From Octopus vulgaris (taxonomy: Eukaryota), in the NCBI GenBank assembly GCA_951406725.2, contig OX597824.1:11222001-11286000 (forward strand): a stretch of DNA of 64,000 nt, written 5' to 3'. The position numbers and the translations under genes were made by a program. Under the pieces are notes generated by a model. The model did no database searches. It saw only the letters and a list, made by a program, of their open reading frames with translations, and had not been told where the DNA came from. Positions 361 through 62,897 of this stretch are shown here, piece after piece. Position 1 is the stretch's first letter. Every line of letters starts with the position of its first letter.

Positions 361-729
361 CTAAAATCTTCGACATCGATTTTATTCTATCCAAGATATT
401 AGTCATAATAAGCGCCAATTTGAGACAGAAAACGGATAAATAGCTGACTGACGGAATTCGAACCCAAGCAAGCAATAGGCATCTCACTGGGTCCGTTATT
501 TGTTGCTTTTTATCTCTGGTTGGTGCTTATAGCATATAAAACACACACACACATACATACATACATACATACATACGCGCGCGCGAGATGGTGTGTGTAT
601 AGGAATTCATAGGTATAAATATCTATTAAAAAAATGCAGGGCTATTTGATTAAATAACTTCAGGAAGAAAAGTAAAACGCCAGCAATAATAATTGATAAT
701 GAATGTATAAAGAAATAAAAGAAAAATAC

Positions 730-1317
730 CCTTTTTCGACGCGACTTCAATTTCTTATCGATTTTGGCGGAAGACGGAGTAATTTCTTCGATTGGGACTT
801 CGACATCTGGAGATGTCTGGCATTGCTTGATATGGTCGGAGCTTCCTTTATGTTCGGAAGTTGCTGTACATTCTAAGTTTACACTTTGGTAACCGACTTG
901 ACCTAGCACTTCGATTTTATCTGCTTCTTCTTGAACATGATGGTAAGACGGTCTCTTTGCAGAGAGTGCATTTTTAATATCCGTAATTGTAGAATTCTTT
1001 GTGGGGGTGATGGAAGATGGATATGCTATCGGAAAGTCCGAACGATGAAAGCCAGCATCAGGTTCATCAAACCCTTGTCTCATGGACATCGCGGAAACAG
1101 AGGAATTAGGTGTTTTGTTTTCAATCCTGTTAACATTTGGGGGTTCGTTGGAGATAGAGGTATCGGTAACACTAGCACAGTAAACGCCTGTTGTTGACAT
1201 CTCTACTTCACTTTCATCACAGATTTCTTTCAGTTTCGAATACGGTGCGCGATTCCAAACAGGCCTAATGTATCTTTTGTGGAAACCTACAGCCGTATCC
1301 CAGATTTTATGCCACAT
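730..1317 (-). CDS. Probable first coding exon of an unidentified gene (MWHKIWDTAVGFHKRYIRPVW...KKLKSRRKR), continuing left
   Basis: ATG at 1317; 196 non-repetitive codons; AGG|GTATTT donor at 730/729, after which the sequence turns T-rich. Product not recognised and no downstream exon identified. Confidence 0.6.
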
Positions 1318-3545: not shown

Positions 3546-5459
3546 AATGCGTGTGAACACAGTGTATATTTGCTGACATAATCTTAAAAATTGCTAATAA
3601 TTTTCAGCAACGATATATATATATATATATAAATGAGAAGAGGTCTGTGTTTACGTGAAATTGTTCATCACTTAGCCTTAAGGCGCGCACACGCACACAC
3701 ATGACACCTTTTTTGCACAATTTTTTTTTTTCATGTAAAAATAGCAAAGCATGCATTATATTATCCATCAGACGTGTTTTGTTTATATCAAGACTGTGTT
3801 TTTATTTATTTATCTTATTTATAATCACGCTGGTTTTTTTCAGTGTTATTTTCATCTTCTGTCTGCACTAGGCCATGCTAAGAAGAGATGGAAAAATGAG
3901 TTGATGTGATATTTATGTTTTAACATCGTAAATAACGAAGCGATTCCAAAGAACTGGAACCTGCCACTGTTTCCGCTTTACCGTTAACGTACCCCGGTAC
4001 CTAGTGACAGTTCGTTCACTCACCGATCGTATAGGAAGAACAGGCAATACCTATTATATTGTGTTCGATAATTTTGCATTACAACAATTCAAATCTTGCT
4101 AATATTACCATAAAATAAATTAACAACAACCAGCTCTCACAGTCTTCATATCGAAAAATCTCAATTGATGACAGACACATCTTTTTTTTCTTTTTAATGA
4201 CATATCTAATAATGAACAGAAATAATTGGGAAGTGGGTTAATCGAGTGGTCGAATACATGGGATAGTTTTAAATGCTTCATGACAATGTTAGGTTACAAA
4301 ATATGTTGTGGCTTCAAATTTCACCGCGGTTGTATTTGCCTTATAAACCCACTCAAAGTTCGATAAAATATAGTTATGCACTAAGGACGATTCACTCTGC
4401 TGTATCGCGCCCGTCTGTAATATATGAGTGGTCTTGTGACAATATGAGAAATATTTATATTGATATTTTTGTTGTGGTGGTCGTTGTTATGTAACCCCAA
4501 CAGTATTACGGTATTACGGGCAGAGACGAACGACTTAGCTGCGCCCCACATACAGATCCGCATTTTCCTCACAGCGTAGAGGGTAAGGTAAGCTTTTGTG
4601 AACCAACAGGGCAATCCTATGTTCTGTCGCTCGATACTCCAGAAACAGCAACCAAATTCCCTCGAATCATCTCCTACCGTCTTAAAATAAGAAGGATACA
4701 CTGATCAATATACTCAGGTATAATCAAGGCCTGTAGGTCTACTTCATCATAGTTGACCTGGGGGTAAACAACAATAGCAAGTTGGTTTTCTGCAAGACCC
4801 TTTGCAAACAGGTTTCAATCCTCGCTTAAGGCTGTTTCTTTCCGTTATTGCACTTACGCCGAAAATTGGAGAAAAGAATGGATGTCACAACCCTTTAGCT
4901 CTGAAATTAAATTTCGTGGTTGTTCAAGTAACGATATTAAATATTTACCGAAAAAGAAAATATTAAAATTGGTATTTTCTGCAAGTCATGTTGTCTCAAT
5001 AAACTTGACAAGTCTCAACAAAAAATTGTTTCAAACATAACATTCCCCAACAAAATATAGTTTGTTATATAAAACTGCTTTCCGCAGCTGACGGTAATAA
5101 ATTTTTGTGGATACATTTAATTTCCGCAATAAAAGGAAGTTCTGCCTCTCTAAAAGTACAGTACATTTGTGTTGTCAAAAACAAATTACAATTTATTCAT
5201 CTGACAAAGTAGAAACTCATAGCAAAGTACAGGATTACTGAGTGTTTAATTTACTTGTTAAATTCGATTAGGGGTGTCTATCAGATTGAGTAAAAAGTAA
5301 GCAACGTTTTGAACCATGAAGGACTTGTACCGGATTTTTGCAGAGTTTTGAATATTTTAAAACAATTTTTTGCAATTGCCTGATAATACAGAGACTGGCT
5401 CAAATGCTTCAATAAATTAACATCGATATTTTTTTTCCACCGTCACTACACTCATCTAA

Positions 5460-6245
5460 GGCGGCGAGCTGACAGAAACGTTAGCATGCCGGGCGAAATG
5501 CGTAGCTATATTTCGTCTGCCGCTACGTTCTGAGTTCAAATTCCGCCGAGGTCGACTTTGCCTTTCATCCTATCGGGGTCGATAAATTAAGTACCAGGTA
5601 CCAGTTACGCACTGAGGTCGATGTAATCGACTTAATCCGTTTGTTTTGTCCTTGTTTGTCCCCTCTATGTTTAGCCCCTTGTGGGTAGTAAAGAAATAGG
5701 TATTTCGTCTGCCGTTACGTTCTGAGTTCAAATTCCGCCGAGGTCGACTTTGCCTTTCATCCTATCGGGGTTGATAAATTAAGTACCAGGTATCAGTTAC
5801 GCACTGAGGTCGATGTAATCGACTTAATCCGTTTGTTTTGTCCTTGTTTGTCCCCTCTATGTTTAGCCCCTTGTGGGTAATAAAGAAATAGGTATTTCGT
5901 CTGCCGTTACGTTCTGAGTTCAAATTCCGCCGAGGTCGACTTTGCCTTTCATCCTATCGGGGTCGATAAATTAAGTACCAGTAACACACTGAGGTCGATG
6001 TAATCGACTTAATCCGTTTGTTTTGTCCTTGTTTGTCCCCTCTGTGTTTAGCCCCTTGTGGGTAGTAAAGAAATAGGTATTTCATCTGTCTTTACGTTCT
6101 GAGTTCAAATTCCGCTGAGGTCGACTTTACCTTTCATCCTTTCGGGGTCGATAAATTAAGTACCAGTTGCGTACTGGGATCGATCTAATCGGCTGGGTCC
6201 CTCTCTAAAAATCTCGGGCCTTGTGGCTTGACCAGAAAAGATTAT
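5460..6245 (+). mobile_element. tRNA-derived SINE family A, four-unit tandem array
   Basis: Head GGCGGCGAGCTG.CAGAAACGTTAG, B box GAGTTCAAATTCC, core GCCTTTCATCCT.TCGGGGTCGATAAATTAAGTACCAG (resembles Deu/Nin domain). Units restart at 5699, 5891 and 6076; the last unit has a different tail. Confidence 0.9.
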
Positions 6246-7320: not shown

Positions 7321-8022
7321 ATGGCCTTGTCGGAGGAAGAGTTGGAGAGATGCTTAATCAATATAGAGAAGGAGCTGGCGAGGAGAAGAGGGGAAACCGA
7401 TTTGAAAAGTGGTAAAAGTTTTGCAGGCGTGACCGGAGTTAAGAAGGAAGGAAGGAATTTTTATATGTAGGAGTTTAATGAAAATGGAGGAGTACGAGGT
7501 GGTACTGACTCCTTCCCAGTGAAGTAACGAAAGAAACAGAGAGAAAAACAGTGGTATTCAAATCATTTTCAAAGAGAGAGAAATAGGTAGAGATTGCGGA
7601 GAGAAAAGAAATCGAGAAGTGTTTGGCATCCATCTGGCCGGAAATAACTTACCTGACCAGGGTTGCCAAATATTCCACAGTGGAAGTGAGTTTCTCATCA
7701 GAGGAAAAGACCAGGCAACACTCCGTGGCCTCATTGTCTTCGGACAATATCATCCTCCTACTCTCCTACTTTGGAAGACGGGCATCCAAGGTGAGGGTAG
7801 AAGAGATACCTCCAGAGGTGGATGTTGCCTGGTTAGCGGTGACAATTCTATTGGGCCTGGAGGAGAAGGTAACAATCCTCCATGCCGTGAGAATACTTGA
7901 AAGGAAATGGCTGGAGCAAGGTCTGGAAATGGTCATCCAGGCTACCCCAGGAGACCTAAATGCTATCACAGGTACCATTGTGGTGGGTAATAGGAAATTA
8001 AGGGTAATGGTGGAAGGCAGAA
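7321..8022 (+). pseudogene. Degenerate, 3'-truncated non-LTR ORF1 related to the 46394 ORF
   Basis: SFAGVTG, KTVVF, EIEKCL, SYFGRRASKVRVEEIPPEV..WLA and VMVEGR align with TYAGVTG, KTVTY, EIEKCL, SYKGRRGVRVKIPNIPPEI..WLA and VIVEGR; stops and a frameshift present. Confidence 0.85.
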
Positions 8023-8377
8023 CGTGTTATTGCTTAACCGGACATAAGCTGGGGTTTGATCAACTCTGGTTGGGTGGCGTAGGTAAGGGTATTTGATGAT
8101 TGAAGGACCCAAACACCCAAGTAACAACCAATGACGATGTATCCAAGTGTAAGACAAGATGATGTATGAAAAAAAACCTATACGTGAATGATAAAGACTA
8201 CACTTCCAAACCATCAAAGACTTCAAGCAGCCAAAACTTAAAAGAAGACGAAGGTTAACTGCATTTAATGAAAGCAGAAGGAATAGGTGGTGTGATTGGT
8301 ATCACTGAAAATCTTTCAGTCCTAGAACGCTGATTCTGTTCCCGTGATCAGCTATACTGTAGAGCAACTTACAGAAA

Positions 8378-8768
8378 TCTCTCTCTATATTGAGCTGAAG
8401 TTGTCTGTGTATGGCAGGTTTGGTAGCCTTCAGCTAACGCTATCTCCTCCGAGACCCTGCGGCGCAAGTTGACCAAAATTGAGAGTATGATAGAAGAAGG
8501 CTTGCTCTTCATTCCGTACAAGAAAAAATTCAAATCGGACCATGTTAACACCAAAAATTATTTACATCAGAAAGGTGCTTTTCTCTATGAAAATCCCTAT
8601 TTTTTACGATCTTTTGACTGCTGTGTCGCCACTTTTCGGTGTATTTCAACCAGAAAAATGTTCACTTAAAGAGAATAACAAGCTACATAATGCAAAAGTT
8701 TTACTTTTCAAAAATTCCAATTCTAAAGGGTCGAAACAAACCCGAGCAACGCCGGGCGATACTGCTAG
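8378..8768 (+). mobile_element. Non-autonomous Helitron, copy 1
   Basis: A|TC 5' end, 3' hairpin CCCGAGCAACGCCGGG, CTAG|T end; close copies at 11505 and 43914. Confidence 0.85.
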
Positions 8769-10679
8769 TAATTGATAGAGATAGATGATGTTGAAGAGTT
8801 TTACCATCATGAAGAAAGAAATGTTTCTCAACACTGTTTTTAGAGTCATTTTACGGATCCGTTGAATGTCATTTTGAGCGTAGAACATTTTTTAGGCAAA
8901 CTTGCGCACACCTGGTAACACTAGATAATAAAGTGTGTGGTGATGTATCTGGTTTATTCTATCCATATTTTAGAATCAAGGGGCAAGAACAATATAACTT
9001 CCAGAAAAAACGTAATTGGCAAAAATTAAATGCTTTTTAAGGGCCATACAAGAAAAATAAGCTGCCGCTTTGTCTACTTATCAGAAATCTTAATTGAAGA
9101 CATAACTAAGAAAAAACAAAAATATTGCAGACAAGCATAATGCAATCTTGAATAGATAAGCATGTGTTGCACCGAGGAGCTGTGGCGAAAATTTTGCCAT
9201 GAATCTTCTTCATATCTACCTACACTCTCTTTTGACGAGTCAACTTCTGCACCGAATCACATTTGTTGACATGCATTGGAAACTAATCCAGTTAACGATT
9301 TAAGTGGAGATGAGGTCTTATCGACACTAGGTACTTATGAGTTCGTTCTTATTGATCGTAGAGCACTGATTCACACTCTACGTGGAACAACAATTCAGAG
9401 AAGTCTCGTAAATATTTCGTTCAAGTTCTTTACCCAAGGATCCAACATGATTTTAAAAAAGCGTCGAGAGTAGATAGATATTGTCTGAGATCAGTACCAC
9501 ACATTGATATCATAAACATAATATCTGGGTGAATAAATAAATGTAAATCATTAATTATATACTTGCAGATCTTCATTTGAAAGAAAATAATTCTAAATAT
9601 TTCGTTTTTGGATTTGGTATGCAAGATTCTTTATATGAGTTCGTGTGTTGAAGCATTTCAGTAGTCTTGACTATTGAAAAGGTTGCAAGACGCAACGAAA
9701 ATTTTAGGAAAATAAAATAAGAAATAAGTGGAAATTTTACCGGTGAGTGTGTTACATTATAAAGCACAAAAAGAAAATGACTCTCCCCAGACACAACAGA
9801 ATTCTAAATATGTTTCAGAAAAGATCATCAATTCAAAAGTTAGAACCGTTTGAATACTATTACTTTCCTTGAAAACAATATCTTATGCACTTCCTCTGGG
9901 CCTCGCATGCCCTCCATTGGACAACTCTGTTCGAAATTGTAACTGAGGCTGTATCTTAAATGCAATACCAACAGTTAAATTTGCATATAAATTTGAAATG
10001 AAAAACTGCAATTTTCGAAATTCGATACTCCGCTTAATACCACAAAGTCAAATTTAATCGATAAATTAAACACTCAGCTGTGACGTTTAATGCCTCACTA
10101 TAAGTTTTTATTTTATCTGATAAATAAACAGCTGTTCCTTTTAGAACACAAATAAACTACACCTTTATAAAGGGAAAGTTAATCAGATATTGTAACAATC
10201 ATTTTCCCCCCACAATAAGCAGCATCAGTGTAGTAGTGGAAATGGATGTGCTCAAAAGCGGCTTGCAAAACATCCTACAGAAAGTCAACTTGTTATTAGT
10301 CCCAAGTCAATCACATTGGAATAGACTTATTTCAGTCTTGAAATACTATGTGTTACTACTATTTTAAGACGGTGATAAATGATTTGAGGGCATTTAGTTG
10401 CTATACCTAGCATGTCAAGCGACTTAATATGGGGTCCACCGTTCTCTCACAACAGCTTTCTATTTTTGTCTGTATTGTCATGAAAAAGCGGATCTGTGTG
10501 ACGCAACTAGGTCTTTCAGCTGTGTGTTTTCTATAGGACTGGCCAATCAGATCTGAGCCGGGATTACATGACAACGTGCTTAGATAGCAATATAAATATG
10601 AATTTCTCGTATTGTTACGAGACCACGTATCTATTATGTGTGACAGGCGGACGGTGGGAATATAGTTAAGTAATGAGAA

Positions 10680-11279
10680 GGCGGCGAGCTGGCAGAAACG
10701 TTAGCGCGCCGGGCGAAATGCTTAGCGGTATTTCGTCTGCCGTTACGTTGTAAGTTCAAATTCCGCCGAGGTCGACTTTGCCTTTCATCCTTTCGAGATC
10801 GATTAAATAAGTACCAGTTACATTCTGGGGTCGATGTAATCGACTTAACCCGCGTGTCTGTCCTTGTTTGTCCCCTCTATGTTTAGCCCCTTGTGGGTAG
10901 TAAAGAAATAGGTATTTCGTCTGCCGTTATGTGTTCTGAGTTCAAATTCTGCCGAGGTCGACTTTGCCTTTCATCCTTTCGGAGTCGATTAAATAAGTAC
11001 CAGTTACGCACTGGGGTCGATATAATCGACTTAATCCGTTTGTCTGTCCTTGTTTGTCCCCTCTATGTTTAGCCCCTTGTGGGTAGTAAAGAAATAGGTA
11101 TTTCGTCTGCCGTTATGTGTTCTGAGTTCAAATTCTGCCGAGGTCGACTTTGCCTTTCATCCTTTCGGAGTCGATTAAATAAGTACCAGTTACGCACTGG
11201 GGTCGATATAATCGACTTAATCCGTTTGTCTGTCCTTGTTTGTCCCCTCTATGTTTAGCCCCTTGTGGGTAGTAAAGAA
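10680..11279 (+). mobile_element. SINE family A, three-unit array
   Basis: Units restart at 10911 and 11097; one TSD GAATATAGTTAAGTA (10658-10672, 11282-11296) brackets the array. Confidence 0.9.
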
Positions 11280-11504
11280 TTGAATATAGTTAAGTAGAGA
11301 ATTATCATTAGTATATAACGATATTTGTTCTAGTAAACTCGAAGGGTATACAGTAAATTCAGCTCTGGTCAAATTTGCAGTCATAACGTTTAGGAACCTA
11401 ATGAACATTACAACAAAACATTTAAAACTATTCCATATATTCAACCACTCAAGTAACCTTTATTTCTATTCTTTATTAGATGTGTCTATCATAAATTGGC
11501 ACAA

Positions 11505-11896
11505 TCTCTCTATATATAAAGCTGAAGTTGTCTGTGTATGGCAGGTTTGGTAGCCTTCAACTAACGCTATCTCCTCCGAGACCCTGCGGCGCAAGTTGAC
11601 CAAAATTGAGAGTATGATAGAAGAAGGCTTGCTCTTCCTTCCGTAGAAGATAAAATTCAAATTGGACCATGTTAACACCAAAAATTATTTACATCAAAAA
11701 GGTGCTTTTTTTCTATGAAAATCCCTATTTTTAACGATTTTTTTTACTGCTGTACGCCATTTTTTGGTGTATTTCAACCAGAAAATTGTTCACTTAAAGA
11801 GAATAACAGGCTACATAATGCAAAATTTTTACTTTTCAAAAATTCCAATTCTAAAGGGTCGAAACAAACCCGAGCAACGCCGGGCGATACTGCTAG
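11505..11896 (+). mobile_element. Non-autonomous Helitron, copy 2
   Basis: Same termini and body as 8378-8768. Confidence 0.85.
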
Positions 11897-11959
11897 TTCT
11901 GTATAAAAAAAAGTGTGCTCACATTCTCGTAATGTGAGTTACCTATCAAAATATAATAG

Positions 11960-12908: not shown

Positions 12909-13666
12909 TTAGCAAACTATGATCAAAAGTGTTCCAACCAGGACCTCCTTGACTTTGCACAATATCTGGGAATTCATTATCTAATGTGTCTTTCCCTTTC
13001 TCAAAACAACAGAAGACTTAGCTGCTATTTTTAGCATGTCGAGTGACCCCAGAGTAATCTCCTTGTTATTGTTGTTGGCGGTGGTGGTGGTTCGATAGTG
13101 ATGACTTTTGTTTATCATCAAGATTACAGAAAAGATAGATTTTCCATTTTGACTGTTTCACATCGATTTTCTTTTTTTTTTTTGACCATGTGAGCAAGTG
13201 GTTTTATAGCTGAATGTCCACTTATCAAGCTTAATTAACTGAACAATGCTCACATAAAAATGCACTCACATATATATGCATTTATTCATACATACTCAAA
13301 TGTGTGTGTGCGTGTGTGTGTGTGTGTGTGTGTATGGTGGTGGTGGTGCTGGTGCTGGTTGAGGTATTTTCATGTACTTATAAGTTTAAAAATATATAAC
13401 CTTGTTCAAAAATGTTTGGTATTTCCCCAAGTTCCCTGCAAAATATTGTAAGGGAGTAGAAAGACTAATTTTAGATTTATTAGCTTTCATCAACTTTTGC
13501 TGAAGTCTGCTGCTTTGCCATGAAATAATGGCTTACAGCTGCAAAGAAAATGCTACTAACCTCCAAGGTTCTTTCCTCATCTTGATTACTAATCATCATC
13601 TTGCATCTGTTTTTCCATGCTTGCATGGATCGGATGGGGCTTATTTAGCACAGCACCTCACCACTT

Positions 13667-14235
13667 ATTACAAATATCTTGGGTCATACATATCATCACC
13701 TGAAAAAGATTTTCTAACTAGAAAGGGTATGGCCTGGTCAGCCTGTAATGATATGCATAAGATCTGGTCATCAAATCTAAGTAGAGATTTCAAACTTAAG
13801 ATCTTCAAAGCCACAGTCGAACCAATTCTACTATATGGCTCAGAAACCTGGACGTTATCAAAGAAGCTTGAGAGGCGGTTGGATGGAACTTACACTCGCC
13901 TCCTTATGAGAGCTCAAAATATCTCATGGAAGCGTCATCCAACCAAAGTACAAATATATGGGGAAACTACCACCTGTATCATCTCTTGTGAAAGGTTGGA
14001 GAGTCCAGTTTGCTGGACATTGTTGTAGAGCTGAAAACGAGGTAATTTCTACTCTTCTCCTCTGGAAGCCATCTGCTCATGATACCAGAGGGCACACACT
14101 CTCCTACCCTGATGTAATCTCCAGGGATACAGGCATCCAGCAACAGGACCTCCGTAATGCTATGATGGACCGTGAAGTCTGGCGTAACATAGTAAATTCC
14201 ATTGTCTCGACCACGGTCGAACAATGATGATGATG
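13667..14235 (+). mobile_element. RTE-clade LINE 3' segment (~570 bp) inserted into an older antisense RTE end (13590-14385)
   Basis: YKYLGS...LLYGSETW...FAGHC...DREVWR, (TGA)n tail, TSD ACCACTT. Confidence 0.9.
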
Positions 14236-14607
14236 ACCACTTCTTCAGATCTTTGTCATCCCCTTCATGAACTTCAGTTCCCTCAGATTGGTTTCCACCA
14301 TATTTCCCCATATCTTCTTCAGTTTTCCTTTTCTGTAGACTTGCTAAATTTGGATTATTTGGTACTTCTTCATCCAACTGTCAGCCTTGTGGAGGCACAT
14401 GGTCTAGTGGTTAGAGCAGTGGACTCACAGTCGAGGGTTCGTGGGTTCGAATCTCACTGGAAAATCAAATTTTCCACTCATTCATGCTCGATAAATTATG
14501 GACCTGACTTGGAAAATAAATTTTTTAAACTGATTGATTATATCTCTTGTGTTTGTGCTATTAATAAATACTACAACCATAAATTGAGAATTTCTATACA
14601 ATTTCTT

Positions 14608-20571: not shown

Positions 20572-20962
20572 TGTCACTTCACTGCTCATCAAACATTTAA
20601 AAGTCAATTGCAATTAATCTAATGAACCTGTTTCTATGGGAAGCCAGGTATGTCTACATTCACTAATAATATAGTTTTCATTTATATATTGTATTTATTT
20701 TAGGTGAGAAGGAGAGTATTATTTCCTGAAAAATATCACAATTTTTGTTTAAATAAATACATAAAATAATTAAGTTGGATATCAATATATTTTCTATTTA
20801 ACAAATTATCACCACAAATTGCTATTTTAGACAATTTTTTTTTTTAATCAGAGAATATTATTTAATTAGTATACAATTTAAATCTTTAATCAAGTCACAG
20901 GAATATATTAAAAATTGGCAAATATATGTATACAAGTTTATGAAATTTTGTAATGTATAAGT
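20572..20962 (+). repeat. ~390-bp near-identical direct duplicate of 22938-23333
   Basis: Only a few differences by eye; lies within an old CAGTACTGGA-ended element (~20296-21164). Confidence 0.9.
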
Positions 20963-23559
20963 ATGATGTATTTTAAGTGGAGTAATTTATATCAGACAAA
21001 TCCTGATTTAGAATTTGAATCTGTTAGGTACAATTTAACTCTTTACTTTTTATAGTTTAATTATATTTTAAGTATATATTTAGACCGTCTCCAGAATGCT
21101 AGAAAATCCAGAAATCCAGGACACTTCCAGTTCCAAGCTTACCAAATAATCGATCCAGTACTGCATACATTAATTTGTTTAGTTTTACTACAGGTATAAT
21201 TAATTTATTGTTACAAAGACAGAAAATATCATATGGATATTTAACTTTCATATAAATTTAATTTCGTTAAAATTTTCCCTCAAACATTGTAGCAGACAAA
21301 ACATATCTTGAATTATTAAATGAAACATTGCAATATATTTTAAAATAAATAAATAACTGATGATATATAAAGAAAAAAACACACACACAAAAAATGTACA
21401 ATGATAATGATAACAGATTTGGATTCAATTAACATATCGATTGTTTTTTAGGAATTAAAAAAAATATATTTTATCATGTCTAAAATCTCAACATTTTTTG
21501 GAGTATAAACTTAGTAAACTAGTAAGAATGAACATTTTTGAAAGTAATAAGGAATTGATAGCAAGCTAGAAATGGGATTCACTTTCCTTGTTTAACCATT
21601 TGTTGCTATATTTTTGTTGAAAAACCCTACTTTTGTTTCAACTAATTTTAGTAAAATAACTGTTATTAATAAATTGATGTTTAAAAAATAAACTAACAAG
21701 AAATATTGATGCACAGTCTTAATTCAGATTACTTTAAGAAAGAAAGATTGTATCATAGAATGAGGGGATGGTCTCACATGGGTTGGTATCAAAAGGGTTA
21801 AACTACAACATCTTAACAGACATGTTATAAAGGTTTGCAATATTTCAAGTGAACATATTACTTTTCAAAACAAAATTTTTTTTTTAAATGTTTTTTTTTA
21901 TCAAATTTAATTAAACCCGTCACAGTTGAGAAATTGAAATTATATGAAGTCTGGGAGAGAGAAATAAACTTTCCCATCCTCCAACGATAGCTCTGGAACT
22001 GACAAAAAAAAAAAGATAGGTATCTGCTATGCATTATATAATTCAAATCGTAAAGATGGCAAGGACCAAAATTGAGAATATTGGCTGAATTTGTACATAT
22101 TTCAAATTTCATATTTCTAAAAGACTCCAAACATTTGAGAGTAATTAAATTAACTTTATGACATAAATGAAATAAACATAGCATCTGTGAAAAAAAAAAT
22201 TACATAAGCTTCTTTGTATAATTTATAAGGAATGGAAGTCAGTGTATTTTAGTCAAGTAGACTAATAATCTGGGAAAACTAGAGCATTGTAAGGTATGCA
22301 AATATTTAAAAGATGGAAGTGGCATAGCTCACAATTCAACATTTTTATTTTTAATGCATCAAAGTATAAAATGGCCATGTGGAATTATCATATGGTTTAT
22401 TGAGATCACTTGAGGCCTTGCTTAGTTGAAATGACCTCAGTTAGGATTCAGCTGTTGAAAATTCATAATTTATTTAATCAAAATACATGGAATGTTTTAG
22501 AAGATAACAAACACAACAAAATTCTAATAAATATTTAACATTGATTTTCTTTGCTTTCTCATGCAAGACTCTGCAACATTACTGTTCTGTAATATATATA
22601 TAAAGAGATGTTATAGTTTTAGTTTCATGCAAGTATAGAAAATACAAAATGATGTCAACCTCTTCAAATTTCAGTGTACAAAGATACACTGCAAAGTTAG
22701 TAAACAAATACAGCTTTATATTTTACAGCTATTGATAAATATATATACACACACACTCATACACACACAAACATTTTCAATGACATTGACTTTCTCAAAT
22801 TGCGGCCTATGTCACCTCGAGAAAGTCCATATTTGGTGATAGCTTTAAATGGAAGCTTATTAGAAGTTGCTGTTGACTCAAGCAATGAACCATTGAGAAA
22901 AAGGACAATTTTATAGTTTTTTTCTCTGCCAACCTTTTGTCACTTCACAGCTCATCAAACATTTAAAAGTCAATTGCAATTAATCTAATGAACCTGTTTC
23001 TATGGGAAGCCAGGTATGTCTACATTCACTAATAATATAGTTTTCATTTATATATTGTATTTATTTTAGGTGAGAAGGAGAGTATTATTTCCTGAAAAAT
23101 ATCACAATTTTTGTTTAAATAAATACATAAAATAATTAAGTTGGATATCAATATATTTTCTATTTAACAAATTATCACCACAAATTGCTATTTTAGACAA
23201 ATTCTTTTTTTTTTTTTATCAGAGAATATTATTTAATTAGTATACAATTTAAATCTTTAATCAAGTCACAGGAATATATTAAAAATTGGCAAATATATGT
23301 ACACAAGTTTATGAAATTTTGTAATGTATAAGTGAATATAGATATGAGATTATATTTCCTGTGTTCAGTATATATGATAGCCATGAGAGACAATTTCAAT
23401 ATATATGGAATCTTTCAGCTTTCAATTTCAAAAATAAAATGATACCAGATGCAAAAATGACCCTTCTAAATATCTGTCATTAGGCTGATGGTCTGTAGCC
23501 TTCCTTGAAATTTAAATGAGTAAAAATGATTATTTTTCTTAATGGGAATTATAGTGTTA

Positions 23560-43913: not shown

Positions 43914-44308
43914 TCTCTCTATATATATAAAGCTAAAGTTGTCTGTGTGTGGCAGGTTAGGTAGCCTTCGACTAACGCTATCTCCTCCGAGACCCTGCGG
44001 CACAAGTTGATCAAAATTGAGAGTATGACAGAAGAAGGCTTGCTCTTCATTCCGTAGAAGAAAAAATTCAAATTGGACCATGTTAAGACCAAATATTATT
44101 TACATCAAAAAGGTGCCTTTTTTCTATGAAAATCCCTATTTTTTACGATTTTTTTTACTGCTGTGTTGCCATTTTTCAGTGTATTTCAACCAGAAAAATG
44201 TTCACTTAAAGAGAATAACAAGCTACATGATGCAAAATTTTTACTTTTCAAAAATTCCAATTCTAAAGGGTCAAAACAAACCCAAGCAACGCCGGGCGAT
44301 ACTGCTAG
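43914..44308 (+). mobile_element. Non-autonomous Helitron, copy 3
   Basis: TC...hairpin...CTAG|T. Confidence 0.85.
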
Positions 44309-44660
44309 TTTCATTATAATTTAATAAAATTGAGAATAGGCTTGTAGTGAGAAGAAAAACAATCTAATCTATGACACTATGACAACGCCAGCCATGATTA
44401 TGTCTTATTAGATTTTCTCAACGAAGAATAAGAGAGAGATCTTTAATAAAGAATTACTATATGCATGTACAGTGACACAGACAAATTTACGTAACAGACC
44501 GAAGGAAAAATGTCCAGAGATGACATGTAGATGGGAAATAATTTGTAAAGTAAGATCTAAAACATTCAATGTGAGAAAACTTATGAGCTAATAAAAAAAA
44601 ATCTGTTCTTACTGAAATATTGTCGGTTGGAGATTACAGTTTAGACTTGGAGGAACTTAC

Positions 44661-45740: not shown

Positions 45741-46258
45741 TGAGAATGTGTGTGTGTCTGTTTGTCTGTCTGTGTGTTTTCCTAAAACTTGAGAACTACA
45801 CGACCAATTTCATTCAAATTTTACACATGCCTTACTTAGGGTCTGGGGAGTGTCATATTTTACTTTTTGCCTAGAGCGAGCCCATAGCAATATTATATCT
45901 TCTCCACTATTTCAGTATTACATGTTAAAAGTGAAACAAAAACATTTCTCTATTTTATGTCAGATACTTTCACTTTAACAATAAAAATAATACTAACAAT
46001 TGAATTATATGTAGTAAGTAATAATTAAAATCAAACTAAAGTATAATATTACCGTAACATAACAAAAGTAAAAATAGCAATTGGTATAAAATTGCATCAA
46101 TGACTTGAACTTGAATAAGTGGTTTCACATGAATGGGAATAAATTAAAAAATAAAATTAGCGTGCAGAAATGGAATAGTCCAGATGGATAATAAAAAATT
46201 AAATTAAAGAAAAGACTATTGTCTATACAATGTAGAGAAAAAAGAAGATTTGAACACA

Positions 46259-48036
46259 CGGCGGAAATCAATTTGCGTGTTGTTATCTGTGATTAGAAGT
46301 TGAAATTTTGTTGTGTAAAGTGATTAATATCGCGCGAGGCGTTTGCCTCCACGTTTGGAAACCTTCAGAAGAAGGTGAATTGACCCTCTAGTCATGGCGA
46401 CTTACGCGGGGGTCACGGGAAAGAATAATAATGATTCGGCAATAATCGTGAAGGATGTTTTCTTTGAGAAGAGTAAACTCAAAGAATACGAAAAGCTCTT
46501 CAAAAGGGAGGGTGATAGCGTGAAGCTAATCCCCCCCGCGAAAGCAAAAGAGGACAAAGAAAACAAAACTGTAACGTATAGAACCCAGGATAAAAGTACA
46601 AAGAAACTGGCAAGAGTGGAGATAGCAGAGATCGAAAAATGTCTGGGAGACATAATGGATAAATCGACCTACGTGAGTAGAGGAAAAAAATTTGGTACGG
46701 TGAAGGTGAGATGTGCAACGGAAGAAATTGCAGCCTCACTGGCTACCACTGTTCTAAGAGCGGAAACATTTATAATGTGGCCCTCATACAAGGGAAGAAG
46801 AGGGGTCCGGGTTAAAATCCCGAATATACCCCCAGAAATAAAAACAGAATGGCTGGCAACAGCTATTCTAGGAGCAGCAGAAGAGGAAGTGGAGGTGGAA
46901 TCCTTTAAGGAGTCCAACGCAGTAAATTGGAGAGGATATGGGGTAGAACTGTGTTTGATGGCCACAAAAGAGGACATTGAAAGGTTCCCCTATAGAATAG
47001 AAATCGAAGACGAGAAAACCCTCAGTGTAATTGTAGAGGGAAGAAAGCCAAACTGCTACTTGTGCGGGACAAGGGGGCACATTAAAAAAGAGTGCCCGTT
47101 ATATGAATTCATGGCGGAGTATGAGAAGGAAACTGAAGAAAAGAAGAATACGGTAAATGAAAAAGAAAACATAGAAAAGGAGACAAAACAACAAGAGAAA
47201 GGAAATAATAAGTCAACGAAGGAAAATAAATAAAAGAAAAGAAAGAAATAGAACCAAAACAGAGTCAGGAAAAGAAAAAGGAAAAAGAAATAACAGGAAA
47301 AAAACAAGAGAGAGAACAGAACCAAACGAAAAGAAAAGACGGCACACAAAAAGAAAAAGAAAAGGAACATAAAACACGAGAGAAAGAGAGAACAGACAAA
47401 GAACCAAAAAGACAAGAGAAGGAAGAAGAAAGAAAAGAAGGCAAAAAGAGAGAAAGAGAGAAACAAAGAGAGGAGAACAAGGAAGAAATAAGCCCGAAAA
47501 GAAAAACGAGAGAAAACGTAGGACGGAAACAAGATTACTACAAGTTAATAACCTTCCATTTCAGCCCCGAAATGAAGGAATTGACATGTAGTATGGAGGG
47601 ACATGTGTGGGTCAACAGGATGACTGATCAGTGGCAGGAGACTGCTCTGATCCCCGAAGAAAGAGTCGCTGAGTTCCTCAGAGCAGCTGGAGAGAGTGTA
47701 ATTTTTTACACGGGTGTTCGAGTGAAAGAGCGGCTGCCTGAGGGCTCAGTGATTGACTTTAGAGACTTGAAAAGTATTATGGAATACGTGTGAGATTGTG
47801 AGAGGAGAGAGAAGAAAGAAGAGAAAAAAGAAAAAAAAAATTGTGAACTATATGTGACGAAAATGTAACCTCTCGATTCCGGGGATCGAGTGGGCATTTG
47901 CATCTCATTGTAAATATTCTTTCATTTGTCATTTTTATTTTTATTTTTTTCCCTTCTTGTCATTTCGCTTTCTTATTTTAAGTTCCCCGATTGTATTGTC
48001 CCCTCTATGTTCGCCCCTTGTGGGTAGTAATAAAAT
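46259..48036 (+). mobile_element. ORF1-only non-autonomous non-LTR element
   Basis: 5'UTR, ORF1, ~240-bp 3'UTR, LINE/SINE-type terminus; flanked by CACA; splits an older ORF1 relic. Confidence 0.8.
46394..47793 (+). CDS. L1/Tx1-type ORF1 (RRM-like region, CYLCGTRGHIKKEC knuckle, K/E-rich linker, C-terminal domain); ~466 aa if one frameshift near 47230 is bridged
   Basis: ORF 46394-47233 plus a second open frame 47230-47793. Confidence 0.8.
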
Positions 48037-48350
48037 CACATGGAGGAAAGCACCATCGAAAAGTGTCTTGGTGCGACTATGAAAGATATCTAACCAGAGA
48101 CAGTAAATTCACCACAATAGAAGCAAGGTTTGAGTCAACGGAGCGTGCAAAAGAGTACTCAACTTGAACTTGCAAAGTGGAAATATTTTAGTTTTACTTT
48201 TATATCTGGGACATAGGACGTGCCAGATAAAAATTAAAAATGCCCCCCACCCACCCACCCCAGAAGTTGAAGTAGGCTGGATTGTAGCCACACTTCTATA
48301 CAAGAGGGAGGACAAGATACAATTGATCGAAATTGCAAGAGACGGGCTTA
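48037..48350 (+). pseudogene. Right half of older ORF1 relic (left half 46206-46258)
   Basis: Rejoined: KEKTIVYT/CREKRRFEH|MEESTIEKCLGATMKDI...YLGHRTCQIKIKN..PEVEVGWIVATLL. Confidence 0.8.
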
Positions 48351-50019: not shown

Positions 50020-50423
50020 ATTATAATAATAATAATAATGAAATTATTGTATACAGTGCTCAGGTGCACCACAACTTGTCAGAAAGTGCATATAAAGTAC
50101 ATGCAGCAATGTAGAAATGTCTGGAAAGTGAACATGTTTGTGTGTGTATGGAGGGGAGAAAATCAAGTGTAGTGTTGGCGAATCTCAGGAAGCATGGAAG
50201 TTTTGAAGGATGCAGTGCTCCGACAACTAACAACCGATGCCGGCAGTTTGTTCCACGCTTCAGCAACTCTTAGCGTGAAAAAATGTTTCCTGAAGTCATG
50301 GGAGCTGTGCTGTTTTCTTACTTTGTAAATATGTCCACGGGTGTTAGATGGGTGGAGTTTGAAGAGGTGCTCAGAGTTATTGTTTGTGCGATGGTTGATA
50401 ATTTTATGGGTGTCTGCCAAGTC
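50020..50423 (-). mobile_element. CR1/Jockey-group LINE 3' end
   Basis: NTRGH.YK...FFTLRVAEAWNKLP..VV...FK, (ATT)n tail; second copy 59672-60106. Confidence 0.9.
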
Positions 50424-50754
50424 TGGAATAAGGGTACATATTTAAGGAGGTGGGGGCAGGAAGGGGAATGGGGGATACAGGGGGTTCATAAGGGGTACAG
50501 GAGGGGTGGTAAGAAAGGGACAAAAAGGGGACAAGAGGAAGGACAGGGGAAGGTGTTTTTATCCTTTGTTGTTCACTTTTTGAAAAAAAGACACATTAGG
50601 CAATGTTACCCAGTGGCCATGCTGGAGTACCACATTCAAGGGTTTAGTTGAACAAGTTGACCCTACAGTTCTATATTTAAGAGATGAGGAATTATGTACA
50701 TTATTTACATTATTTACATTTGATGGATATTTGTCCTCATCTTGTTTGTTGTTA

Positions 50755-54704: not shown

Positions 54705-55022
54705 CTGTAAATGACAAATAATTTTTTTAGTTATTAATAACAATCACTGAATAGCTAATGTTAATGGTTGTGGTTATTGTTGTTGTGTTGTCTAGATCCT
54801 ATTTAGCCCTGAGTAGCCCTATGATCATGGGTATTCCAACTGTGACAAGCTTGTCTTTTTAGGGCAATCTAGGACTACATTATCTGGTATAGCCCTATAT
54901 AGTCATAAAGGGCATAATTTGAGGGAATTTTGGCTGTTCTTCCAAGCTAGTTGAGTGACCAAGGATGTTGATGTTGAGTTGACCCCCAAGCATGAGCTGA
55001 TTCAGCAGATCTATGGTCAATA

Positions 55023-55405
55023 AGGCGGCGAGCTGGCAGAAACATTAGCACACCGGGCGAAATGCTAAGTCTGTCGCCACGTTCTGCGTTCAAATTCTGC
55101 CGAGGTTAACTTTGCCTTTCATCCTTTCGGGGTCGATTAAATAAGTTCCAGTTATGCACTGGGATAGATATAATCGATTTAATCCATTTGTTTGTCCTTG
55201 TTTGTCCCTTCTGTGTTTAGCCCCTTGTGGGTAGTATATAAATAGGTATTTCGTCTGTCGCTATATTCTGAGTTCAAATTCTGCCGAGGTCAACTTTGCC
55301 TTTCATCCTTTTGGGGGTCGATTAAATAAGTACCAGTTACGCACTGGGTTTGATATAATCGACTTCATCCGTTTGTCTGTCCTTGTTTGTCCTCTTTGTG
55401 TTTAG
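55023..55405 (+). mobile_element. SINE family A dimer
   Basis: Second unit restarts at GGTATTTCG, 55245. Confidence 0.85.
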
Positions 55406-58111: not shown

Positions 58112-58992
58112 GGACCTATGGACAACTTCCAGAGATCCCTGGCCTGGCAGTGCTACCGAGAAGCGCTACCCGTTCAGGATAAGCTCTATAGGTATGGCTC
58201 GAGAAACACAGGGCTGACCTGCCCGAGATGTGGGCAGAGCGACGAAACCATTCTGCACGCAATCGTGCAGTGTCCAACAATCTCCGACCTGTGGGCATAT
58301 GTCGAACGACTGCTGTCACATGTGGGACGTGTCGGTTTATCAGCCGAGTCTATCGTTAATGTCGTCACGCCTCCTTCCTTCAAACGGGAAGGAAGAGCTA
58401 TTTTCATCATCCTTGTGGCTATGGCGAAAGAATGTATCTGGTGGACTCGCCTAAAAGGATTAGAGACAAACACTTTCCTCTCTGGTCAATCTCTCATCAA
58501 CTTCTTCAAGTATCACTTGAAGAGAAAAGTGAGAGTAGAGAGGCAAGTTTTGTCTAGTGAATGTTTTAAAAAAAGATGGGTGAATGTAGCAAGGATGGCA
58601 CGTATGAATGACGAAGCCACCTTGACTATGATCCTATGAACCGTAAAAATTAATACAGAGAGTTGCTTATTTGTAAAAAGAAATATAACATGTGATTTCA
58701 TTGACCGAGGTTACTGTGGTCTTTTCCGTAGGCTTTTCTTTCCATGGGTAAACCTCACCTGTCCTCCCCTTTACACTTTATATTTACATTTCTGTGATAA
58801 TGATCCCTATTGATCGATTTTTTTCCTTTTCCTTTTATTTTCTATCCCACCCCCATTTTTTGTCTTCTTTCTTTCCTTTTACGATCCCTTTTGATCGAAA
58901 ACCAAACCCCCTTTTTTTACCCCCAAAAGAAAAGCTCTACCTTGTAATTTGTCCTGTCTGTGTGCAGCCCTGTGTGGCTAATAAAGAAACAT
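58112..58992 (+). mobile_element. 5'-truncated Tx1/L1-clade LINE (ORF2 C-terminus 58118-58639 + 3'UTR) inside (ATCT)n
   Basis: zf-RVT-type W....ALPV...CPRCGQSDETILHAIVQC....LW; (ATCT)n on both flanks. Confidence 0.9.
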
Positions 58993-62136: not shown

Positions 62137-62712
62137 TCATCATCATCATCATCATTGTTCCACCGTGGTTGAGACAATGGAATTTACTATGTTACGCCAG
62201 ACTTCATGGTCCATCATAGCATTACGGAGGTCTTGTTGCTGGATGCCTGTATCCCTGGAGATTACATCAGGGTAGGAGAGTGTGCGCCCTCTGGTATTGC
62301 GAGTAGATAGCTTCCAGAGGAGAAGAGTAGAAATTGCCTCGTTTTCAGCTCTACAACAATGTCCAGCAAACTGGACTCTTCTACCTTTCACAAGAGATGA
62401 TACAGGTGGTAGTTTCCCCATATATTTGTACTTTGGTTGGATGATGCTTCCACGAGAGATTTTGAGCTCTCATAAGGAGGCGAGTGTAAGTTCCATCCAA
62501 CTGCCTCTCAAGCTTCTTTGATAACGTCCAGGTTTCTGAGCCATATTGTATAATTGGTTCGACTGTGGCTTTGAAGATTTTAAGTTTGAAATCTCTACTT
62601 AGATTTGATGACCAGGTCTTATGCATATCATTACAGGCTGACCAGGCCATACCCTTTCTAGTTAGAGAATCTTTTTCAGATGATGATATGTATGACCCAA
62701 GATATTTGTAAT
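62137..62712 (-). mobile_element. RTE 3' segment, copy 2
   Basis: Same extent as 13667-14235; TSD-like ATGACT. Confidence 0.9.
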
Positions 62713-62897
62713 CAGTCATACTCATCTGCAAATGGAAGCTAAGCTTTTCCTTCATTTTATTTCATCATCATTATCATTTAGCATCCATGTTCTCCACTGG
62801 AATGGGCTAGACTGTCATTTATAATTTATTCTTAATTTATTTTACTAATTTCTGTTCACTGAATGGCTAAGTTACCTTTCAATTAAAGGGGATACAA

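Follow-up and report, generated by a model that had tools for sequence, protein, structure and literature searches.

Among non-autonomous LINEs that carry an ORF1, HAL1, HeT-A and Ag-Sponge have been described, from the clades L1, Jockey and CR1 (PMC5786205). HAL1 (half-L1) of mammals is non-autonomous, encodes ORF1p alone and has several origins (PMC5753468 and PMC5786205). The protein of HeT-A and Ag-Sponge is thought to multimerise with that of the partner element (PMC5786205 and PMC6581046). Mammals and insects already offer examples of ORF1-only elements that borrow the copying enzyme. The mammalian L1 ORF1 protein is built as coiled coil-RRM-CTD (Transposase_22), and HAL1 has a poly(A) tail. 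Poly(A) recognition by mammalian L1 is covered in PMC3747384; according to the same source, the last ~45 nt are common to parasite and LINE in stringent SINE/LINE pairs.

For Octopus vulgaris, PMC13282606 has 80 consensus families of L1-Tx1, and its Table 1 gives 13 recently active L1-Tx1 families with 421 insertions. In the accessible text of this repeat paper and in one supplement, the terms ORF1, HAL1 and non-autonomous are absent. Our literature search turned up neither an ORF1-only Tx1 derivative nor the octopus ORF1 family reported here; subscription journals, Repbase Reports and Dfam are largely outside its scope, and the family may already be catalogued in one of them.

The window (the whole stretch of 64,000 nucleotides of O. 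vulgaris DNA that was analyzed) is eukaryotic and repeat-rich, and neither a tRNA gene nor an Rfam family was found in it. It contains an element with an ORF1 and without ORF2. With moderate confidence, we assign this element to a young family of non-autonomous elements, ORF1-only parasites comparable to HAL1 and HeT-A and independently derived from Tx1.

An insertion into an older ORF1

The element and its target site have the following features.

46203-46258 (+): interrupted older ORF1, left piece (by translation and junction scoring)
46255-46258 (+): left target-site duplication (TSD), CACA (by sequence)
46259-48036 (+): ORF1-only element, 1778 bp (both ends placed from the interrupted ORF1 and the CACA copies)
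46259-46393 (+): 135-nt CpG-rich leader, a putative 5' UTR and internal promoter
46394-47233 (+): ORF1, N-terminal frame, 279 aa (ATG at 46394, frameshift-induced stop at 47231-33)
47222-47233 (+): 1-nt frameshift private to the window copy (decay or assembly error)
47230-47794 (+): ORF1, C-terminal frame, with an E/K/R-rich linker and a C-terminal domain of ~85 aa
47795-48036 (+): 3' UTR, 242 nt, without ORF2 remnant
48037-48040 (+): right TSD, CACA (by sequence)
48041-48346 (+): remainder of the interrupted ORF1 to the right of the element, decayed and truncated (by HMM)

Positions 46259-48036 are a real insertion that arrived as one unit, as had been claimed in the preliminary description: CACA is present on both sides, and the interrupted ORF1 is rejoined when the element is excised together with one CACA copy. 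Junction variants were scored with a family HMM, which was built from 50 relatives and from which the element and a near-identical copy were left out. The one-CACA join reached 16.6 bits and was tied with the best (16.7) among 169 variants. That ORF1 homology continues to the right of the element (HMM matches at 48084-48194, iE 2e-6, and 48149-48346, iE 2e-8) and that this join is tied for best argues for a single event. The older host ORF1 is itself frameshifted, on either side of the junction. Since five offsets produce the same join, the ends of the element can be placed no more precisely than the CACA ambiguity allows. The earlier view that both ends are fixed has to be relaxed to this extent, while the in-frame junction peptide on which it was based was reproduced. 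With 4 bp, the TSD is short; the insertion is of the retrotransposition type, with the host frame restored.

The length of 1778 bp, the 5' UTR (the 135-nt leader), the CCHC knuckle and a 3' UTR of ~240 bp were all confirmed. In the leader, CpG occurs at 0.059 per nt, versus 0.017 in the window. The reported absence of endonuclease and reverse transcriptase (RT) holds for the window copy, where 11 ORF2 proteins gave a best tblastn E of 0.2; six of the same proteins match a Tx1-like LINE fragment at 58.1 kb with E 1e-62 to 1e-78. The element had further been said to carry one ORF1. An ORF1 with a CCHC knuckle is indeed present, but its frame is broken by a 1-nt frameshift that had been overlooked. 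The N-terminal frame is 97% identical to O. vulgaris gene model P0012 over 189 aa, and the C-terminal frame is 98.9% identical to models P0012 and P0028. Because 19 of the 31 fetched models from O. vulgaris keep the frame at this position, the frameshift is private to the window copy. When it is read through, ORF1 comprises ~465 aa and extends to the last stop at 47792-94. Unless the frameshift is an assembly error, the window copy cannot make full-length ORF1p.

Within ORF1, three domains were delimited.

46535-46798 (+): predicted RRM-like domain 1, aa 48-135 (AF2 pLDDT 91; VIA)
46799-47047 (+): predicted second RRM/ferredoxin-like domain, aa 136-218 (Foldseek; VIA)
47051-47098 (+): CCHC zinc knuckle, aa 220-235 (Pfam PF00098, E 6.2e-5, above cutoff)

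ORF1 is thus predicted to fold as RRM-RRM-CCHC. AlphaFold, run on 52 sequences, gave a pLDDT of 91 for aa 1-239. By VIA, domain 1 resembles nucleolin (Z 9.2) and La (Z 9.1), with an rmsd of 2.1-2.5 over 77-82 aa, and domain 2 reaches Z values up to 8.1. The top Foldseek matches of ORF1 are tandem RRM proteins (E 5.5e-5, with low TM-scores), and zf-CCHC is its sole Pfam match. For the C-terminal domain, neither a Pfam match above cutoff nor an Atlas match was obtained. The single-sequence model of this domain is unusable (pLDDT 42), and its homology to an 89-aa module (P0015, see below) or to distant C-termini is not significant (E 0.3-1).

In agreement with what had been proposed, profile comparison supports an origin of ORF1 from L1/Tx1 LINEs; the match is to these and not to mammalian L1 ORF1. 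HHalign matched the ORF1 profile to the ORF1s of six RT-bearing elements (97%, E 5e-11) over 135 columns covering the RRMs and the knuckle; the assignment of these six to L1/Tx1 is a reading of them, not a tree. A scan that used a relative of the Tx1-like ORF2 in the window as query fetched 80 loci, from which these six were picked for a long ORF ahead of ORF2. The ORF2 domains (APE-RT-zfRVT) were seen in L001 and L013. Direct matches of the family HMM to the 80 loci are weak (best iE 1e-6; 8 of 80 under 0.1). The Atlas neighbour of ORF1, a cluster with ZCCHC3 RBD1/RBD2 at 0.90, serves as a lead only. Mammalian L1 ORF1 is absent from the matches of the fold and PDB sequence searches, an absence that is no exclusion.

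Two further ORF1 relatives in the window, neither with an adjacent ORF2, had been put forward as pointing to an old family. One is the interrupted host ORF1, the other lies near the start of the window.

7321-8045 (+): second ORF1 relative, decayed, cut off at the knuckle and tailless

The homology is real (for the second relative, 35% identity with E 7e-25, and HMM iE 4e-60 at 7509-8036). Both relatives are, however, truncated and tailless, so that the missing ORF2 is uninformative and an ORF1-only structure cannot be derived from them. The sequences downstream of the two score 26.5 and 23.5 for the tail, which is background level. The leaders of two ORF1 relatives do not align. A motif common to these leaders, CGCGCGAG (at 46331 and 7225), is found in a simple repeat as well (at 580) and was dropped.

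The 3' tail and a candidate helper

Four features bear on the 3' end of the element.

47861-47899 (+): predicted hairpin in the 3' UTR (-16 kcal/mol, z -2.5)
47990-48036 (+): terminal tail, common to a SINE and a Tx1-like LINE (AATAAA at 48029-34)
10676-11281 (+): tail-sharing SINE, head-to-tail trimer with a 15-bp TSD
58113-58990 (+): 5'-truncated Tx1/L1-like LINE with ORF2 C-terminus, 3' UTR and related tail (zf-RVT, E 4.5e-8)

The element ends in AATAAAAT, without a poly(A) run. Over its last 47 nt, the element agrees in 42 of 47 columns with the tail of a SINE that is abundant in the window and in 35 of 48 columns with the tail of the Tx1-like LINE fragment; in both comparisons, none of 2000 shuffles was as good. 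When 716 window tiles were scanned, the Tx1 tail tiles ranked next after those of the element and the main SINE tail. The LINE-type terminus and the link to Tx1, both part of the preliminary description, are borne out by this tail, which the element and the LINE fragment have in common. The SINE end is in register with 48036 and thus provides an independent check on the 3' end of the element. Between stop and tail lies a UTR body of 195 nt with a layout as in the Tx1 3' UTR (purine-rich, hairpin, T-rich). The alignment of this remaining 3' UTR with the Tx1 fragment is not significant (57 of 1000 shuffles as good). The hairpin comes from one of six pieces that were folded, and 3 of 200 shuffles were as good; the fold of the tail is no better than that of its shuffles (z -0.4).

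A tail held in common with a Tx1-like LINE points to the helper, and the fragment at 58113-58990 is a candidate for the helper lineage only, since the tail is nearer to the SINE than to Tx1 and the UTR body does not align; the lineage is represented by this fragment. Following established LINE biology, transcription would start from the CpG-rich leader, and the element RNA would be coated in cis by its own predicted RRM-RRM-CCHC ORF1p. A borrowed Tx1/L1 helper ORF2p would then recognise the common 3' tail and copy the RNA into the genome by target-primed reverse transcription.

The tail-sharing SINE has TSDs of 7-15 bp in four of five copies checked, versus 4 bp at the element. It forms head-to-tail arrays at 5456-6194, 10676-11281 and 55019-55405, each with one full and several 5'-shortened units that are joined at the same point. 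In the trimer at 10.7 kb, one 15-bp TSD encloses the whole array. The octopus SINE families OK, OR1 and OR2 are cited in PMC4758252. The LINE fragment is surrounded by a (TCTA)n microsatellite, which may reflect a target preference. At its ORF2 end, it shares 62-71% identity with RT-bearing ORF2s on short contigs from metagenomes and MAGs, one of which is labelled Herbaspirillum and is probably host DNA. At 7589-7696 of the fetched locus L004, the 3' end of a full-length Tx1-like LINE adjoins U2 snRNA (Rfam E 2e-9). Keno elements have their 3' end next to U2 snRNA.

Several other repeats and ORFs were noted in the window. Two fragments (13663-14236 and 62143-62716) are 96% identical, with a weak DUF6451 match, and presumably come from the 3' portion of an RTE-like ORF. 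An ORF2 C-terminus at 50150-50450 (-), identified by motif, is taken by us to be CR1/L2-like. A repeat of ~395 bp is present in three copies at 92-94% identity (8376-8769, 11503-11897 and 43916-44309), and we assume its ends to be Helitron-like; another 396-bp pair (20572-20962 and 22938-23333) is 98% identical. The 236-aa ORF at 607-1317 (-), without Pfam match, is possibly a host exon.

The ORF1 family in octopods and rival explanations

Judged from protein sequences, the ORF1 family is young and multicopy; to this level, the multicopy family that had been postulated was borne out, and the ORF1-to-tail junction was read in one copy only. The closest proteins to the window ORF1 are O. vulgaris models (81-98% identity). 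Of the 31 models fetched, 18 (22 accessions) end at the same C-terminal residue. These are spread over six contigs of chromosome scale plus one unplaced scaffold and are 87-99% identical to the C-terminal frame of the window, the window copy being 97-99% identical to its nearest model. A tree resolves at least two ORF1 subfamilies. By phmmer, 494 ORF1 relatives were found, and eight of the 20 looked up belong to Argonauta or to one of the species O. vulgaris, O. sinensis and O. bimaculoides. Accession numbers that follow one another (CAI9715245-49 and -51; CAI9739099-101) point to clustering of copies, some of which may be isoforms.

Among 187 sampled words of the element, 63-77% are present in 20 of 24 sequencing runs listed (9 studies, 2 organism codes); one of these runs may be the window's own source, and the words, being spread over the element, do not locate the junction. 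None of the runs listed as holding element words is an RNA run. No DNA copies were found, by protein or tail motif, in the metagenome, prokaryote and viral collections, and an ORF2 scan of the genome contig collection returned nothing. Long ORF1-ORF2 fusions were absent among proteins of 1508-4305 aa, which is weak evidence. In the O. vulgaris gene set, none of eight matches is an ORF2 model, and with an annotation that lacks any ORF2 model, the ORF1-only accession runs are no proof of a missing ORF2. Four Logan contigs, 1849-1930 bp long, carry a distant ORF1 relative (P0092, P0204-P0206). This length would fit another ORF1-only element but may merely reflect unitig breaks.

O. vulgaris also has a young multicopy ORF module of 89 aa without Pfam match (P0015-P0022, P0029-P0031, P0003). 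It is spliced upstream of a family ORF1 in models P0018, P0019, P0031 and P0003, and the module variant tracks the ORF1 subfamily in all four. In four other models (P0016, P0017, P0021, P0030), it is joined to unrelated exons, and it is absent from the window. In P0186 of O. bimaculoides, a Tx1 ORF2 C-terminus is joined to a downstream ORF1 of the element's family; in the window, the same ORF2 end goes directly into the tail, with no ORF1 between. The module link may mean that a longer form exists, which would explain it; so would insertion in tandem. Host gene models fused to pieces of retroelement ORF1 or ORF2 (P0098, P0106, P0118 and P0187; astacin/ShK, LDL-receptor A, RhoGEF) are probably annotation artefacts.

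The ORF1-only family is probably real. Our interpretation builds on the insertion with its 4-bp duplication, the lack of an ORF2 remnant, the many close ORF1 relatives and the tail sharing. It presumes that the other copies would lack ORF2 as well. The window copy might instead be a one-off derivative of an autonomous Tx1 LINE, generated by internal deletion of ORF2 or by a template switch from a SINE/LINE tail to an ORF1 RNA. We give this a low probability, although such an origin would suit a junction that was seen once, an annotation that is generally devoid of ORF2 models, a tail that is closest to the SINE and a short TSD. In four intact Tx1/L1 elements (on metagenome contigs L001, L004, L008 and L013), ORF2 overlaps the ORF1 stop or starts within ~40 nt of it, so that a chance deletion would be expected to leave a remnant in most cases; none is seen at either side. 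Moreover, a UTR body with Tx1-like layout sits between stop and tail. The sequencing runs with up to 77% of the words argue weakly in the same direction, as the words do not locate the junction.

We consider it unlikely that the window copy is the 5'-truncated 3' part, or a monomer, of a longer element with an upstream ORF that ends in the 89-aa module and possibly with an upstream ORF2. The four models that link module and ORF1 with matching subfamilies, together with P0186, would speak for it, as would the fact that ORF1 residues 1-87 are absent from every gene model. These links are, however, also explained by tandem or clustered insertion, as seen in the SINE arrays and the ORF1 accession runs, and the gene models are probably automatic predictions. 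The lack of the module in the window, its splicing to unrelated exons elsewhere and the Tx1 ORF2 end that runs into the tail without an ORF1 argue against a longer element, and the leader resembles a genuine 5' end in being rich in CpG. ZCCHC3 is a domesticated host gene derived from ORF1. The RRM-RRM-CCHC layout resembles ZCCHC3-type clusters and some copies are clustered, which might indicate a domesticated host gene family that multiplied by processed retrocopies or segmental duplication. This is very unlikely, given the LINE/SINE-type tail, the many frameshifted or truncated copies, the dispersal of near-identical copies and a closest O. bimaculoides relative that is just 50% identical. 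Returning to the ORF1-only parasite, a bolder version of it is conceivable, which we regard as rather doubtful: several long-lived Tx1-derived ORF1-only lineages might use one stringent tail with the dominant SINE and the helper LINE, some as gag-gag dimers or tandem arrays, and parasite and SINE would compete for one RT.

Comparison with known ORF1-only elements

The element had been called HAL1-like. This fits its proposed way of working, and the likeness consists in an ORF1 without ORF2 (in the window copy). Strictly, it is no HAL1: the ORF1 is of the Tx1 type (RRM-RRM-CCHC, with only zf-CCHC in Pfam), the element occurs in an octopus, and the common tail has no poly(A) run. HeT-A of Drosophila and Ag-Sponge of Anopheles are ORF1-only like the element but belong to different clades (Jockey and CR1). 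HeT-A is telomere-specific, whereas the octopus copy lies within an older ORF1, at an interstitial site. With the L1-Tx1 LINEs of Octopus, the element has ORF1 homology and a related tail in common, but the copy lacks ORF2. Many members of the Tx1 clade have a sequence-specific target; the octopus element is known from one insertion site. In contrast to the stringent SINE/LINE pairs, the octopus tail would be used by two different parasites, one of them a SINE and the other protein-coding. As the SINE is protein-free, the common tail would permit a direct test of why parasites keep ORF1, with the same helper and with or without ORF1p. Some two dozen O. vulgaris gene models that are annotated as "uncharacterized" are copies of a retroelement ORF1. 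If confirmed, this young family would represent a fourth independent origin of ORF1-only parasites, from Tx1 and in a mollusc, beside those from L1, Jockey and CR1.
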